Shown here piece after piece: positions 3,195 to 10,290 of a stretch of DNA of 64,000 bases (within the stretch, counting starts at the first letter, position 1; the number at the start of each line of letters is the position of its first letter). The translations under genes and the position numbers were made by a program. Below the pieces are notes generated by a model that did not search any database, was not told where the DNA came from, and saw only the letters and a list, made by a program, of their open reading frames with translations. Source of the DNA: an uncultured Collinsella sp. (GTDB lineage Bacteria > Actinomycetota > Coriobacteriia > Coriobacteriales > Coriobacteriaceae); NCBI GenBank assembly GCA_900754445.1, contig CAAECW010000107.1, positions 14,643 to 78,642 on the forward strand. The letters are read 5' to 3'.

Positions 3195-4661
3195 ATGCGT
3201 ATCTACAACAGCGCTACCCATAAAAAGGAAGAGTTCCAACCCATCGAGTCCGGCAAGGTCCGCATGTACGTGTGCGGCCCCACGGTCTACGACAACATCC
3301 ACATCGGCAACGCCCGTACGTTCATCAGCTTTGACGTGATTCGCCGCTGGCTCATCGCGAGCGGTTACGAGGTCACGTTCGCCCAGAACCTCACCGATGT
3401 CGATGACAAGATCATCAAGCGCGCCAACGAGCAGGGCCGCACTGCCGCCGAGGTCGCGACGGAGTTCTCCGACAAGTTCATCGGCGTCATGCGCGCCGCC
3501 AACGTGCTCGATCCGGATGTGCGTCCTCGTGCCACCAAAGAGATCGGCCCCATGATCGCCATGATCAAGACGCTTATCGAGCAGGGCCATGCCTATGCCG
3601 CCGATAACGGCGACGTGTACTTTGCCGTGCGCAGCGATCCCAACTATGGTCAGGTCTCGGGCCGCAACATCGACGACCTTATGGTTGGCGCGCGCATCGA
3701 GGAGAACGAGGACAAGAACGACCCGCTCGACTTTGCCCTGTGGAAGGCCGCCAAGCCCGGCGAGCCCAGCTGGCCGAGCCCCTGGGGCGAGGGCCGTCCC
3801 GGTTGGCACACCGAGTGCGCCGCCATGGTGCATCGCTACCTGGGCACTCCGATCGACATCCACGGCGGCGGCTCCGACCTTGCCTTCCCGCATCACGAGA
3901 ACGAGTGCGCTCAGGCCACCTGCGCCTGGCACCAGGGCTTCTCCAACACCTGGATGCACACGGGCATGCTGCTGGTAGACGGCGAGAAGATGTCCAAGTC
4001 GCTCGGCAACTTCTTTACGCTGGCCGAGGTCCTCGAGCAGCACTCCGCTGCCGCCCTGCGCCTGCTGATGCTGCAGACGAGCTATCGCTCGCCGCTCGAC
4101 TTTTCTTGGGAGCGCCTGGAGGGTGCCGAGAACTCGCTCACGCGTATCGCCGGTACGGTCGAGAACCTGCGCTGGGCCGCGAACCACGCGACGGCCGATG
4201 CCGATGCGGCTGCCGTCGAGGCGTTTACCGCCAAGGCCGCTGAGACTCGTGCTGCCTTTAAGGAGTGCATGGACGACGACTTTAACACTGCTGGTGCCAT
4301 GGGTGCCGTCTTTGGCTTTGTGACCGAGTGCAACCAGTACTTGGAGCAGGCGGGCGACGCTGCCGACAAGGCCGCAGCGCTTGCCGCCGCCGACACGCTG
4401 GCCGAGCTGCTCGATACGTTTGGCGTTGAGCTCCCCGAGCCCAAGGTCGAGCTGCCGCTGGGTCTGCTAGGCGTTGCCGCCGGCCTGGTCGCCTACACGG
4501 GCGACGACGTGGACGAGGCTGCTGCCAAGATTCTCGAGGCCCGCGCCGAGGCCCGTGCCGCCAAGAACTGGGATCTGGCCGACGCCATCCGCGACCAGCT
4601 CAAGGACCTGGGCCTCACCATTGAGGATACCGCCGCCGGCACCCGTATCAAATCTCTCTAA
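3195..4661 (+). CDS. cysS: Cysteine--tRNA ligase
   Basis: 488 aa with YVCGPTVYDNIHIGNART (HIGH) and KMSKS motifs. Confidence 0.95.
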   Translation: MRIYNSATHKKEEFQPIESGKVRMYVCGPTVYDNIHIGNARTFISFDVIRRWLIASGYEVTFAQNLTDVDDKIIKRANEQGRTAAEVATEFSDKFIGVMRAANVLDPDVRPRATKEIGPMIAMIKTLIEQGHAYAADNGDVYFAVRSDPNYGQVSGRNIDDLMVGARIEENEDKNDPLDFALWKAAKPGEPSWPSPWGEGRPGWHTECAAMVHRYLGTPIDIHGGGSDLAFPHHENECAQATCAWHQGFSNTWMHTGMLLVDGEKMSKSLGNFFTLAEVLEQHSAAALRLLMLQTSYRSPLDFSWERLEGAENSLTRIAGTVENLRWAANHATADADAAAVEAFTAKAAETRAAFKECMDDDFNTAGAMGAVFGFVTECNQYLEQAGDAADKAAALAAADTLAELLDTFGVELPEPKVELPLGLLGVAAGLVAYTGDDVDEAAAKILEARAEARAAKNWDLADAIRDQLKDLGLTIEDTAAGTRIKSL

Positions 4662-6444: not shown

Positions 6445-6478
6445 GGAGTTGGCGGGGCGATGCTGTCTCGCTAACTCC
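6445..6478. terminator. Hairpin between convergent genes (bidirectional terminator candidate)
   Basis: GGAGTTGGCG...CGCTAACTCC forms a 9/10-bp stem directly after the rae1 stop and the HipA-like stop. Confidence 0.4.
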
Positions 6479-7811
6479 ATTCAGCGATGTCGATCATTCT
6501 TTTGAGGCGCCACGTTAGCGCCTCTTTTAGATAAGGCAGTCTCGCTGTTAGAGCATCGTTTTTAGACAGAATCTCGATTGCCTCGTCAACGAAGCCTTCG
6601 AGTTTGTCGCCGTCAAACCAGCCCATGTCCTCGACGAGCAACATCTGTTTGGCGGGGCTTGAATGAAATTGTGCGCTGGTAAAACTGTGCTCTCCTGCCC
6701 GAAGCTCCTCAAGAGAAATGTTGCACCAGAGCGATGAGCCCGAATCGAAGATGGGGGCAGGTCTGCAGGCTAGCGTGTTTACGTTTCGCACAAGGCCAAA
6801 GTTACGCCAATGACGATCGTAGTTGGCGATGATGCCGTCGCACACGATCATGCGGTCAAGGGCATCCTTGACGCCTGTCACCCCGAGCTCCTCGCAGTTT
6901 GCTACGTATCGCTCGTAGTCGGTTAGCCGTTCACCTGCGTTCGCGTACTGGTTTACATAGAACGCAGGGACATACTCTTCTTCATCAGTTAAGAAGACAT
7001 CGCATATGCTCAGGGCGGAAGTGCCCGTGCCCTCGAGCGAGTAAGGCACATAATCGCAGGTGTTTAGGATGCGACGGTGGAGCGTGGTCGCCACCAGCTC
7101 GTTATAAGGTTCCTGGTTCAGGTGCGCTCCTGCCTTATGCAGAATTCGACGCCCGCCCTCGCATGTCCAGTACTTTTGAAGATTGCCGTCCGAGGTGTTG
7201 TCGGGCTTTGCGGCAGCCACTTTTCCCTCTGGGGCGAAGGGTGCAATGGTTAGCGAGACGTCATCAAAGGCATTATTGAAGAAATTGATATCTTCCCACG
7301 CGAGGCCGGAGTCTTGGGGCCTAATCCAATACTGGTCGGATAAGGAGAGGCCAAGATTTCGCTGTACGAGTTCATCGGGAACATCGACTGCGGCTTTTGC
7401 AAGCAGGGAGGCAAGCCCAATGCGTGCGAGCGGGATACCGCGGCCGCGCCACCAGATGCGGAAGGAGTCGAGCGATATGGGGCTATTAGGGCCAAATACT
7501 CCAATAGGGGCGTGGGCGTAATCGATGTCGGCACCGATGTGGGTAAAGTCTTTTCGCGATGTGCTGTAGACCAGCTGAGCGACCTCGTGCGTGCGATTCA
7601 TGAGGGTGAACGCGATCTCGCTCTTACCGTGGCCGCGGCGGGGACGTCCCCCCGTTTTGGTCACGGAGCGGAGTCGCGTGTCGACGCTGTCTTTGTCGAT
7701 GAGCCATACACCAGAAGCCTTGCGGGCATCAAGTGCTCCGTTTTTTATGAGCTCCTGCACCCTGCGCGGAGTGATGCCGAGCAGCTCGGCGGCTTCCTTG
7801 GTAGTAAGCAT
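6471..7811 (-). CDS. HTH-fused HipA-like serine/threonine kinase (YjjJ/HipH-type single-chain HipA homologue)
   Basis: It has an N-terminal excisionase/MerR-like HTH (LTTKEAAELLGITPRRVQELIKNGAL). Its C-terminal HipA catalytic loop IANYDRHWRNFGL matches the HipA DxHxxN consensus. I prefer the start at ATG 7811 (or GTG 7814) over the ORF-track start at 7853, which would lie inside the operator palindrome. Confidence 0.65.
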   Translation of the reverse strand: MLTTKEAAELLGITPRRVQELIKNGALDARKASGVWLIDKDSVDTRLRSVTKTGGRPRRGHGKSEIAFTLMNRTHEVAQLVYSTSRKDFTHIGADIDYAHAPIGVFGPNSPISLDSFRIWWRGRGIPLARIGLASLLAKAAVDVPDELVQRNLGLSLSDQYWIRPQDSGLAWEDINFFNNAFDDVSLTIAPFAPEGKVAAAKPDNTSDGNLQKYWTCEGGRRILHKAGAHLNQEPYNELVATTLHRRILNTCDYVPYSLEGTGTSALSICDVFLTDEEEYVPAFYVNQYANAGERLTDYERYVANCEELGVTGVKDALDRMIVCDGIIANYDRHWRNFGLVRNVNTLACRPAPIFDSGSSLWCNISLEELRAGEHSFTSAQFHSSPAKQMLLVEDMGWFDGDKLEGFVDEAIEILSKNDALTARLPYLKEALTWRLKRMIDIAEWS

Positions 7812-7861
7812 CACGAAACCCTTCGTCAAAACGAATAGTTTTATATATAGCAATTGTAATT

Positions 7862-7889
7862 AAAACTATTCGTTCTGACGAATAGTTTT
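7862..7889. promoter_or_regulatory. Perfect 28-bp palindromic operator (12-bp arms, 4-bp centre) upstream of the HTH-HipA-like gene, plus an extra half-site at 7830-7841
   Basis: AAAACTATTCGT-tctg-ACGAATAGTTTT is a perfect inverted repeat. The half-site ACGAATAGTTTT recurs 20 nt closer to the start codon. I read this as autoregulation by the fused HTH. Confidence 0.55.
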
Positions 7890-7933
7890 GAGATTGAGGG
7901 CGAACCGACAGAAATGAACGGGCCTGGTACCTG

Positions 7934-7963
7934 TTGTTGCTGGTTTTTGCATATTTATATAAC
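7934..7963 (+). promoter_or_regulatory. Candidate sigma70 promoter for tRNA-Thr(UGU)
   Basis: TTGTTG, an 18-nt spacer, then TATAAC, about 70 nt upstream of the tRNA. Confidence 0.3.
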
Positions 7964-8035
7964 GCCGTGTGGCCTGTTGCGCCCCGTCCGTAATTCCTTT
8001 ATTCTTAACAGGCTTCGCGCGAAAGCGCCAAGTGT

Positions 8036-8110
8036 GCCAGTGTGGCGCAACGGTAGCGCAACTGATTTGTAATCAGTGGGTTGCAGGTTCGATTCCTGTC
8101 ACTGGCTCCA
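8036..8110 (+). tRNA. tRNA-Thr (anticodon TGT)
   Basis: Manual cloverleaf fold: acceptor GCCAGTG/CACTGGC, D-arm GCGC-AACGGTA-GCGC, anticodon loop TTTGTAA, T-loop TTCGATT, and an encoded CCA. Confidence 0.85.
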
Positions 8111-8116
8111 TGAGAG

Positions 8117-8156
8117 TTTCGGGCTCTGTTCCTTGTGGGACAGGGCCCGTTTCTAT
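8117..8156 (+). terminator. Terminator-like hairpin plus T-rich tract after tRNA-Thr
   Basis: GGGCTCTGTTCC...GGGACAGGGCCC hairpin followed by GTTTCTATTT. Confidence 0.4.
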
Positions 8157-8203
8157 TTATGTCGACATGTAAGTGGGTTTGACTCCCACCAAGCTTCAGG
8201 TTT

Positions 8204-8420
8204 GTCTCGATCTGTAACACGGGTGGGCTGAAAACCCTCCTTATAGTTACAGATCGAGACAATGCCAAAGGACGGCCGATAACGTCTCGATCTGTAACAC
8301 GAAGAGGCTGAAAACCGTTCTAGCTGTTACAGAGTGAGACGTAAGCCGGGGTCGCCGCGTAGTATCTCGATCTGTAACAGATAGGAGAGGAATGACCCTC
8401 TTACTGTTACAGATTGAGAT
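8204..8420 (+). repeat. Array of three 57-nt long-hairpin repeats at an exact 80-bp period (units 8204-8260, 8284-8340, 8364-8420)
   Basis: Each unit is TCTCGATCTGTAACA-N27-TGTTACAGATCGAGA. The 15-bp outer stem is conserved. The inner 27 nt differ between units but each still forms its own inner stem. Units 1 and 2 share the apical loop CTGAAAA. Confidence 0.8.
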
Positions 8421-8663
8421 GAAAACGGTGAGGCCCCTGGTCTACTTGATTGCACCGGGGAAGCTCCGATCTCGACCTATATATAGGTGCAAATAGGCTG
8501 TTATCGAAGCTCGATCCTGAAGGTGTACTCTACTACACCAAAGTGTTACCTTGGGAAACGTCACCTCAGTATCCAAAACCACCGTCCCTCATATCCCAAC
8601 TCAACAAAACAGCAGGTCAAAGGTATATAGATACGCCCGGGGCCGTGTATCTAGAGGTTTTCG

Positions 8664-8693
8664 TTGACAGCCCCCAAGGTTGCATCGTATTAT
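8664..8693 (+). promoter_or_regulatory. Strong sigma70-type promoter for the tRNA-Tyr/Thr/Met-tuf transcription unit
   Basis: Consensus TTGACA, an 18-nt spacer, then TATTAT, about 60 nt upstream of tRNA-Tyr. It follows an AT-rich low-GC stretch (8440-8660) that contains the ACCTATATATAGGT palindrome. Confidence 0.6.
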
Positions 8694-8755
8694 CTTCTTC
8701 GTTCGCGGGGGCGGCGGTCCAAAAGACCAAAGAACCTGCGGATACTTGAACGATT

Positions 8756-8839
8756 GGGAGTTTGCCCGAGTGGTTAATGGGGACGGGCTGTAAACCCGTT
8801 GGCTCTGCCTACATAGGTTCGAATCCTATAGCTCCCACC
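8756..8839 (+). tRNA. tRNA-Tyr (anticodon GTA), long variable arm
   Basis: Anticodon loop CTGTAAA, long variable arm, T-loop TTCGAAT, acceptor GGGAGTT/AGCTCCC. Confidence 0.8.
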
Positions 8840-8847
8840 CGTCAAGT

Positions 8848-8923
8848 GCCTGTATAGCTCAGTCGGTAGAGCACTTCGTTGGTAACGAAGAGGTCACCAG
8901 TTCAAGTCTGGTTGCAGGCTCCA
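8848..8923 (+). tRNA. tRNA-Thr (anticodon GGT)
   Basis: GCCTGTATAGCTCAGTCGGTAGAGC...; anticodon loop TTGGTAA; T-loop TTCAAGT; CCA encoded. Confidence 0.85.
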
Positions 8924-8926
8924 TCC

Positions 8927-9003
8927 GGCGGTGTAGCTCAGTTGGTTAGAGCACACGGTTCATACCCGTGGCGTCACTGGTTCGAATCCAGTCACCGCTA
9001 CCA
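8927..9003 (+). tRNA. tRNA-Met (anticodon CAT; elongator or lysidine-modified Ile2 type, not initiator)
   Basis: GGCGGTGTAGCTCAGTTGGTTAGAGC...; anticodon loop TTCATAC. The G1-based acceptor stem and the anticodon stem argue against an initiator. Confidence 0.8.
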
Positions 9004-9099
9004 TAGGTAACACGGTGGCTTCTCAATAGTATGTTGAGAGGCCACTATGGTATAAAGGCAAAGTCCCGTCCGGGGACGACCTGTTAAGAGGAGGGCTTT

Positions 9100-10290
9100 A
9101 TGGCCAAAGAGAAGTTTGAGCGCACTAAGCCGCATGTTAACATCGGCACCATTGGTCACGTCGACCACGGCAAGACCACGCTGACCGCTGCCATCACCAA
9201 GGTTCTCTCCGAGACCGAGGGCTGCAAGGCTGACTTCACTGCGTTCGAGAACATCGACAAGGCTCCCGAGGAGCGCGAGCGCGGCATTACGATCTCCGTC
9301 TCCCACGTCGAGTACGAGACCGCTTCCCGTCACTACGCTCACGTTGACTGCCCGGGCCACGCTGACTACGTCAAGAACATGATCTCCGGCGCTGCTCAGA
9401 TGGACGGCGCTATCCTGGTCATCGCCGCTACCGACGGCCCCATGGCTCAGACCCGCGAGCACATCCTGCTCGCCCGTCAGGTCGGCGTTCCCTACATCGT
9501 CGTCTTCCTGAACAAGTGCGACATGGTCGACGATGACGAGCTCATCGACCTCGTCGAGATGGAGACCCGTGAGCTCCTCTCCGAGTACGATTTCCCCGGC
9601 GACGACATCCCCGTCATCCGTGGTTCCGCTCTGGGCGCTCTCGAGGGCGACGCCAAGTGGATGGACGCTATCCGCGAGCTCATGAATGCCGTCGACGAGT
9701 ACATCCCGACGCCTGCTCGTAACAACGACCTCCCGTTCCTGATGGCCGTTGAGGACGTTATGACCATCTCCGGCCGTGGCACCGTTGCTACCGGCCGTGT
9801 CGAGCGCGGTGAGCTCAAGCTCAACGAGCCCGTCGAGATCGTCGGCATCAAGGATACCCAGAACACCGTCGTTACCGGTATCGAGATGTTCCGTAAGTCC
9901 ATGGACTTCTGCGAGGCTGGCGACAACGTCGGTCTGCTGCTCCGCGGCATCAAGCGCGAGGACATCGAGCGCGGCCAGGTTCTCTGCAAGCCCGGTTCGG
10001 TTACCCCGCACACCAAGTTCACCGGCGAGATCTACGTTCTGACCAAGGAGGAGGGCGGCCGTCACACCCCGTTCTTCGATGGTTATCGTCCTCAGTTCTA
10101 CTTCCGTACCACCGACGTTACCGGTACGGTCAAGCTCCCCGAGGGCACCGAGATGGCTATGCCTGGTGACCACATCACCATCGAGGGCGACCTCATCCAC
10201 CCGATCGCCATGGAGGAGGGCCTGCGCTTCGCTATCCGCGAGGGTGGCCACACCGTCGGTTCGGGCATCGTCTCCACGATCATTGAGTAA
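9100..10290 (+). CDS. tuf: Elongation factor Tu
   Basis: 396 aa, [32 protein letters not shown]. Confidence 0.97.

Follow-up and report, generated by a model that had tools for sequence, protein, structure and literature searches.

The array described here is located in a 64,000-nucleotide stretch of DNA from an uncultured Collinsella sp. (hereafter the window), and the genes neighboring it are housekeeping genes. On one side, the gene for tRNA-Thr(UGU) (8036–8110, + strand) is followed by a terminator-like hairpin (8120–8149, + strand) that lies between the tRNA and the array, and on the other side a promoter-like site at 8664–8693 precedes tRNA-Tyr/Thr/Met-tuf; all of these features are present as described in the original prediction. 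The array itself is made up of three palindromic 57-nt units, unit 1 at 8204–8260 (arms 8204–8219 and 8245–8260), unit 2 at 8284–8340, and unit 3 at 8364–8420, with start-to-start distances of exactly 80 and 80 bp, which bears out the 80-bp period noticed earlier. The units are joined by two linkers of 23 nt (8261–8283 and 8341–8363), the first of which is not conserved in sequence and is constrained in length. The central A-tract of unit 1 reads CTGAAAAC on the + strand, and in the minus-strand reading this unit fits the family consensus RTCTCRATCTGTAACAnnTAGnnnnnnTTTnnnnnnCTAnnTGTTACAGATYGAGAY. Unit 2 is 79% identical to unit 1, carries two mismatches in its right arm, and is probably an old tandem duplicate of unit 1. 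The distal edge of unit 3, at 8419/8420, coincides with the end of homology with other strains.

The neighboring gene encodes a HipA-like protein of 446 aa (6471–7811, minus strand), which joins an excisionase-type HTH_17 domain to a HipA_C region matched below threshold (E 6e-4). This gene is transcribed away from the array, and the array is therefore not downstream of it, contrary to what had been proposed. It was not called by a codon-usage gene caller trained on the window, which suggests an atypical composition and a possible horizontal origin. An 85-bp near-palindrome at 7810–7894, with 34-nt arms that are 85% complementary and the core AAAACTATTCGT/ACGAATAGTTTT, extends over the start codon of the same gene and the region upstream of it, and it looks like the operator of this gene. 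An Rfam scan of 7000–10000 at E ≤ 1 returned tRNAs only, together with chance miRNA matches on this near-palindrome.

The 15-mer TCTCGATCTGTAACA occurs six times in the array in strictly alternating orientation, exactly 40 bp apart and with 0, 1, 0, 2, 0, and 1 mismatches in order, in agreement with the near-identical outer 15-bp arm seen in the original prediction. Allowing ≤3 mismatches, the window contains 8 matches compared with 0.85 expected, a number reached by none of 100 shuffles, and the two matches outside the array are 3-mismatch chance matches. The array is real and non-random. On either strand each unit folds far better than shuffled sequence, with energies of −31.5, −20.5, and −33.8 kcal/mol for units 1, 2, and 3 (z −7.5, −3.6, and −8.9), and the whole array region folds with z −8.8. 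The inner stem that had been assigned to each unit holds up for unit 3, where the inner 25 nt stand out from shuffles (z −3.06), and not for unit 1 (z −1.07) or unit 2 (z +0.53), neither of which folds better than shuffled sequence. The motif CTGAAAA is indeed common to units 1 and 2, because the central A/T tract is conserved throughout the family.

The array is one member of a Collinsella-specific family of dispersed extragenic palindromic repeats. An exact-pattern scan covering one genome per species found the family unit in at least 119 stretches of DNA, nearly all titled Collinsella (C. aerofaciens group), and a scan of viral-predicted contigs added approximately 12 further real matches, some of them beside tRNA-Glu. 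Three arrays in viral-predicted contigs (L030 5089–5165, L037 299–375, and L039 1467–1543) lie ∼100–170 bp from tRNA-Glu(UUC), which constitutes a second tRNA-adjacent site for the array family. Among the matches listed, arrays contain 1–8 units and fall into 59 flank clusters with approximately 39 context combinations (overall at least some 40 intergenic contexts), comprising 17 tandem, 14 convergent, and 8 divergent arrangements; all are intergenic, with none inside called genes. In the literature searched, no paper was found that contains the arm sequence, describes REPs of Collinsella, or links DUF559 to palindromic repeats.

The anatomy of the unit is rigid. Its length is invariably 57 nt, an arm-to-arm distance of 40 bp inside the unit holds for 375 of 377 cases, and the arm-to-arm spacing over linkers is 40 bp (149 cases), 41 bp (88), or 39 bp (7), the first two values accounting for 237 of about 250, so that the linker is usually 23–24 nt and units are stacked every 80–81 bp. 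Linkers have A/T edges and a G/C-rich middle and are otherwise not conserved in sequence. The oriented consensus of 315 distinct units reads wwT-RTCTCRATCTGTAACA-nn-TAG-n6-TTT-n6-CTA-nn-TGTTACAGATYGAGAY-Aww with the remaining positions near random, and it resolves into two inverted half-sites of ∼19–21 bp (wwT-RTCTCRATCTGTAACA-nn-TAG) that lie on either side of a central A/T tract, with a constant distance between them. Both arms, the TAG/CTA motifs, and the central T-tract, which is the sole asymmetry of the unit, are conserved in the family; loops and linkers are not. Whole units are found at both ends of 145 of the 154 arrays, and no decayed in-phase "ghost" arms were found beyond the array edges. 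The original prediction had considered that the 15-mer might prove to be a genome-wide REP consensus with no stable spacing; it is a genome-wide REP-like consensus, and its spacing is very stable. The copy number per genome seems likely to be in the tens, below the hundreds of classical REPs.

The stable hairpins had been taken as a sign of selection on RNA or cruciform structure with compensatory inner stems, and this does not hold across the family. In 91 diverse units, chosen to differ at ≥10 positions, 76.8% of the cells of the full hairpin are paired compared with 78.5% when the 3′ partners are shuffled, with 500 of 500 shuffles as high, and the covariation score of these units is likewise below that of the shuffles. 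Pairs 22–26/32–36 are unpaired in 50–66 of the 91 units, the variable arm positions 1/57, 5/53, and 6/52 change independently, and G-U is no more common than A-C. When RNAalifold was applied to the 91 units, only six pairs were kept, all of them near-invariant, and the covariation term was 0.02, giving no support for the fold. Within orthologous groups the per-site differences are 0.016 for the T-tract, 0–0.07 for the arm cores, and 0.2–0.4 for loops and linkers, the arm-core rate being partly biased by unit detection and the T-tract rate not. The T-tract occurs in both orientations within arrays and has no preferred orientation with respect to neighboring genes (17 vs 28). The occurrence of the T-tract in either orientation and of arrays in divergent promoter regions argues against a strand-specific RNA, and together with the lack of covariation and of a U-tract after the stems it argues against a strand-specific RNA or a terminator. 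These results favor an independent, sequence-specific reading of each arm in a fixed geometry. Conservation acts on sequence, not on structure.

A processed small-RNA array, as proposed in the original prediction, or a structured RNA, a 3′-end stabilizer, or a terminator would explain why every unit forms a very stable hairpin on either strand and why the whole region folds so well. However, such an RNA would be expected to show covariation and a preference for G-U pairs, neither of which is seen, the inner stems of units 1 and 2 are not significant, and the array is placed after a terminator, with the next promoter still to follow. With the random orientation relative to genes, the divergent promoter locations, the missing U-tract, and no Rfam match for the array, an RNA function is the most improbable of the explanations considered here. 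As a candidate Rfam-type structured RNA the array likewise fails, with only tRNAs matching and no covariation.

Comparison with several known classes of repeats places the array outside each of the following, which agrees with the original prediction as far as CRISPR, attC, and ToxI are concerned. CRISPR arrays consist of direct repeats with unique spacers and are accompanied by cas genes; the present repeats alternate in orientation, their "spacers" hold conserved motifs, and the neighbors are housekeeping genes. The ToxI RNAs of type III toxin-antitoxin systems are direct tandem repeats of ∼34–36 nt beside a ToxN-type gene, compared with palindromic units, a period of 80 bp, and no adjacent ToxN-type gene in the array. 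Integron attC sites carry RYYYAAC...GTTRRRY at their outer ends, contain extrahelical bases, and have an IntI integrase nearby, whereas AAC/GTT is located here at the inner ends of perfectly paired arms with no integrase in the neighborhood. Judged by eye, the array does not match the motifs of parS, DnaA-box, dif, or attC sites. MITEs possess terminal inverted repeats and a target-site duplication, and their near-identical copies are related to an autonomous IS. In the Collinsella family there is no direct duplication at the flanks, the interiors are saturated with change, and no transposase is associated. The array is neither an RNA array, CRISPR, attC, ToxI, nor a classical MITE, and of the earlier suggestion of a MITE-like hairpin family, in place of a one-off duplication, the hairpin family stands.

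A broader form of the transposon explanation, in which the units are non-autonomous transposable hairpins of the MITE or REPIN type moved by a RAYT or an IS-encoded transposase, draws on the dispersal of the family over many loci, the terminal inverted arms, and the occurrence in either orientation. We regard it as improbable. The flanks extend the palindrome (wwT...Aww) instead of forming direct repeats, leaving no target-site duplication, the linkers are held strictly at 23–24 nt, and no transposase family recurs near the arrays. The loops are saturated with change while the arms are kept, and the units are therefore not recent copies of a master. A tblastn search with E. coli RAYT and IS200 TnpA queries, which is a weak test, found no Y1 transposase in ∼1.1 Mb of array-bearing loci.

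Strain comparison shows that the distal edge of the array is a strain-variable junction (8421–8457). Ten metagenome contigs (L001–L010), all belonging to the same species, were obtained by looking up the protein next to the array. In L002 and L006 the homology to the window stops at 8419 and restarts at 8458, with 177 bp containing a second hairpin family held in between, and in L007 it restarts at 8455. L007, L008, and L010 hold a 4.2-kb RpiR-GH1-PTS island at the same 8419/8420 junction, and L009 contains an MFS island between duplicated arrays at the locus of the window. The two arrays enclosing this MFS-transporter island (L009 6917–7172 and 9273–9608) share near-identical units at 6916–7052 and 9392–9528, and the direct duplication of array segments fits a Campbell-type insertion or unequal exchange. 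L001 carries a separate large island at the 3′ end of tRNA-Thr, where homology to the window ends at 8116; within the 10-kb flank of L001 no hairpin array is seen. This island (L001 1–9700) encodes two N6_N4 methyltransferases, a ResIII/YagJ helicase, a DUF2958 protein, and a 396-aa protein with no Pfam match. Array edges are recombination junctions, and at this locus strain-specific islands begin exactly at the distal edge.

The same behavior is observed elsewhere in the family. Orthologous loci differ by growth or shrinkage in whole units of 80 bp, and adjacent units sometimes share loops and linkers, indicating tandem duplication. Single genes or small operons are often bracketed by arrays, including those for an Nramp transporter, an AAA ATPase, membrane proteins, an FHA-kinase pair, and the MFS island, and cassettes that are present or absent between strains are also bracketed. 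At L081 the "empty" allele of one bracketed gene has a single unit, and in the "occupied" alleles the gene lies between homologous units. The AAA-ATPase gene is present in L080 (4671–6230) and L089 (2359–3917) and absent from L094 (5723–5858), between direct repeats of >200 bp, each of which combines a two-unit array with a terminator-like hairpin and with the beginning of the flank of the next gene. This duplication runs past the array into the flank, as expected for homologous recombination. No transposase or integrase genes were found to recur near the arrays; GH1, PTS, LacI-type, and ABC families do recur. Genes for a GH1 phospho-β-glucosidase, a PTS EIIC component, and a LacI-type regulator adjoin arrays in several unrelated contexts (L045–L163), and arrays may preferentially border carbohydrate-utilization cassettes.

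Cassettes bracketed by arrays, the single unit of the empty L081 allele compared with units on both sides of the occupied alleles, the L009 island between duplicated arrays, and the break in homology at the array edge would suit site-specific recombination sites of the attC kind, capturing and releasing cassettes. However, no integrase is found near the arrays, the AAA-ATPase duplication extends far beyond the array, and attC core motifs are not present at the unit ends, making this explanation very improbable. In the reading we prefer, a DNA-level repeat of the REP/BIME kind, the arrays expand and contract by whole 80-bp units, and their edges serve as junctions for island gain and loss.

A candidate for the protein that reads the repeat is encoded by a gene that is itself enclosed by arrays. 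This gene (P0001, 358–374 codons, single-copy) is tightly bracketed by arrays of the family present in the window (family 1) in 11 species-level genomes, and genes of this type have arrays on both sides in 77 of the 77 metagenome loci for which both flanks were available. The protein-profile scan of metagenomes returned only close Collinsella orthologs, and the 77 of 77 therefore tests consistency, not breadth. At these loci a distance of 21 bp separates the last arm from the start codon, and on the downstream side the first arm follows the stop after 12–48 bp in most cases. The gene is syntenic and single-copy across species and vertically inherited. It is not located in the 64-kb window, and its tie to the array there is therefore only through family membership. 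Bracketing within Collinsella is not unique to the nuclease, since it is also seen for an Nramp transporter and an AAA ATPase, for example, and the argument for the nuclease is based on the cross-lineage pattern, sampled in ∼11 homolog loci.

Searches of P0001 against sequence libraries gave nothing above threshold, with DUF559 as a sub-threshold match and AbiEi_4 in 4 of 47 relatives. In the alignment of these 47 relatives Asp-266, Glu-280, Asp-282, and Lys-286 (D266, E280, D282, and K286) are invariant, within ELDGKGK, and the AlphaFold model of the protein is confident (pLDDT 89.2, pTM 0.85). The bracketed protein consists of an AbiEi-like winged-helix (wHTH) N-terminal domain and a Vsr/DUF559-type PD-(D/E)xK nuclease fold. 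Its family is large, with 13,556 clusters at 50% identity at E ≤ 1e-3 and 2,293 at E ≤ 1e-30. Among known systems, the Vsr-like homing endonuclease I-Bth0305I and DUF559 proteins are also close; the Collinsella gene differs in being syntenic and single-copy across species and not an intron- or intein-borne mobile gene.

In other Coriobacteriia, homologs of the nuclease have different palindromes at their flanks, each specific to its lineage and some of them also dispersed. P0209 (L166) has 62-nt hairpins on both sides, and arrays lie on both sides of P0173 (L167) with a 61–62-bp period and of P0163 (L171) with a 91-bp period. The family flanking P0156 (L170) recurs in two other intergenic regions, and the hairpin family at P0226 of Olsenella (L164) is also found 2.3 kb away. 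P0189 (L169), which is 52% identical to P0001 and has the same synteny, is flanked by units of 57–58 nt; their arm, GTCTACTTCTGGGACAG, agrees with that of the Collinsella unit in 12 of 17 positions. The homolog loci L173 and L175 are only partly convincing. The Collinsella paralog P0121/P0127 is flanked by the second hairpin family, with arms GAGCGTGGATAATCTCCCAC / GTGGGAGATTATCCACGCTC. Across these lineages the association appears to follow the protein and not the repeat sequence.

Copies of the second family, which is absent from the window, are found in L002 (9246–9360), L007 (5260–5323), L172 (2590–2705 and 4092–4156), L070, L090, and L095. This family brackets the paralogous nuclease gene and, in other strains, directly adjoins the family-1 array at the locus of the window; its arms resemble a DnaA box by eye. 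The closest nuclease ortholog outside Collinsella is P0204, with 57% identity and the same synteny. Downstream of it, L174 contains a degenerate cluster of short palindromes (3660–3870) built from GATGTTACAGATG / TGTAACATCTG and AGATGTCTG, and these palindromes and the Collinsella arm have the core TGTAACA in common.

A single-copy, syntenic gene bracketed by lineage-specific dispersed repeats is the signature that exposed the REP-RAYT and NTS-SsnA pairs, and repeat-nuclease-repeat arrangements are known for both RAYT and SsnA (PMC2817692, PMC3337134, PMC3116915, PMC11893778). The likeness to the REP/BIME/REPIN-RAYT systems of E. coli and Pseudomonas (PMC2817692, PMC3333891, PMC3116915, PMC3337134) includes extragenic, lineage-specific palindromes, regular clusters with alternating arms, vertical inheritance at orthologous sites, and a bracketed single-copy enzyme gene. 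Of the defining features of REP/BIME elements, the Collinsella family displays many loci within one lineage and regular alternating clusters. In contrast to RAYT, a Y1/HUH transposase flanked by REPINs, the putative enzyme of the array-flanked gene is a wHTH protein with a PD-(D/E)xK (Vsr/DUF559) nuclease. Nor does the Collinsella half-site form a small G+C-rich stem-loop of its own, preceded by GTAG on the 5′ side: the 15–16-nt arm is not self-complementary, and TAG at positions 19–21 is conserved with a G at position 18 in only 26% of units. The unit is moreover rigidly 57 nt, its copies are probably in the tens and not the hundreds, and there is no hairpin compensation.

The NTS/dRS3 (NIMEs)-SsnA system of Neisseria (PMC11893778) resembles the present one in that hairpin repeats cluster at particular genes, flank the cognate nuclease on both sides, and are located at sites that vary between strains, and in that each homolog from another lineage is associated with a repeat variant of its own. 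The nucleases differ in fold and domain composition, with a Vsr/DUF559 fold and an AbiEi-like N terminus instead of GIY-YIG, and the NTS repeat has a length of 28 nt and an oriented flank, so that only the arrangement is analogous and the array is not of the NTS-SsnA type proper. SsnA cuts single-stranded DNA only, whereas the features of the Collinsella system tentatively suggest double-stranded DNA. A further precedent is given by AbiEi, two monomers of which bind inverted repeats cooperatively and bend the DNA (PMC7319586), which fits two arms around an A/T tract. As for the antitoxin-repressors AbiEi and Rv2827c (PMC7319586), inverted-repeat binding is consistent with the two arms and with an array 21 bp from the start codon. 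The Collinsella protein differs from these repressors in having no AbiEii toxin partner and in its C-terminal nuclease fold with invariant catalytic-type residues, and its sites are dispersed genome-wide in arrays and not confined to one promoter.

The repeat-nuclease-repeat arrangement and the AbiEi precedent lead us to read the array in the window as three copies of a Collinsella-specific, REP/BIME-like element acting at the DNA level, with the wHTH-PD-(D/E)xK nuclease as its likely reader, an interpretation that is on balance favored. Each arm would be read by a sequence-specific protein, so that a unit would hold two subunits and be bent at its A/T tract, and the likeliest partner would be the single-copy, vertically inherited AbiEi-like/Vsr-DUF559-type nuclease, encoded elsewhere in the genome. 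By analogy to REP-RAYT and NTS-SsnA, the nuclease may bind or cut the units, which would maintain and spread them and stimulate recombination alongside. The computational results show the repeat family and its architecture, conservation of sequence in place of structure, the behavior of arrays as junctions, and the association of gene and repeat, whereas binding, cleavage, the direction of causation between nuclease and repeat, and the strandedness of the substrate are inferred. The wHTH domain and the arm-by-arm conservation tentatively point to a double-stranded substrate, and it is possible that single-stranded hairpins are recognized instead. The palindromes beside the AbiEi-like gene could also be simple autoregulatory operators.

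An alternative reader is another host protein, such as a nucleoid-associated or topology factor comparable to gyrase and IHF at the BIMEs of E. coli, with the units acting as its sites, a domain boundary, or an insulator, and the nuclease-like gene merely borrowing the palindromes as an operator. The arm-by-arm conservation, the fixed spacing, and the central A/T tract would suit such a protein, genes and operons are bracketed more often than the array density predicts, and BIMEs are bound by several host proteins (PMC2817692). This alternative leaves unexplained the lineage-specific palindromes on both sides of each nuclease ortholog or paralog, as well as their dispersal, and with no candidate host factor identified we consider it unlikely. 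In our preferred reading, the repeat family probably belongs to a previously undescribed partnership of repeat and nuclease. The wider proposal, to which we give a little less than even weight, is that members of the AbiEi-wHTH + Vsr/DUF559 family in Coriobacteriia each co-evolve with a palindromic repeat of their own, which brackets the gene, spreads as phased intergenic arrays, and marks the junctions of island exchange. Such a system would take its place beside REP-RAYT and NTS-SsnA as a third counterpart with a mechanism of its own, and it would probably act on double-stranded DNA at sites of ∼40–57 bp.

The repeat belongs to the REP/BIME kind, and the new enzyme partner proposed for it is plausible and can be tested. 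The genus Collinsella is prevalent in the human gut and is divided into hundreds of genomic species, and a repeat family that marks the entry and exit of accessory sugar-uptake and transporter islands would help to explain this diversity, as well as the assembly breaks at such sites. If the link to the nuclease is real, a new class of enzyme would join RAYT and SsnA as a domesticated nuclease persisting with genomic repeats, and the very large and unannotated "AbiEi/DUF559" protein family would gain a testable function. It would also provide natural nucleases with very long, programmable-looking palindromic sites.
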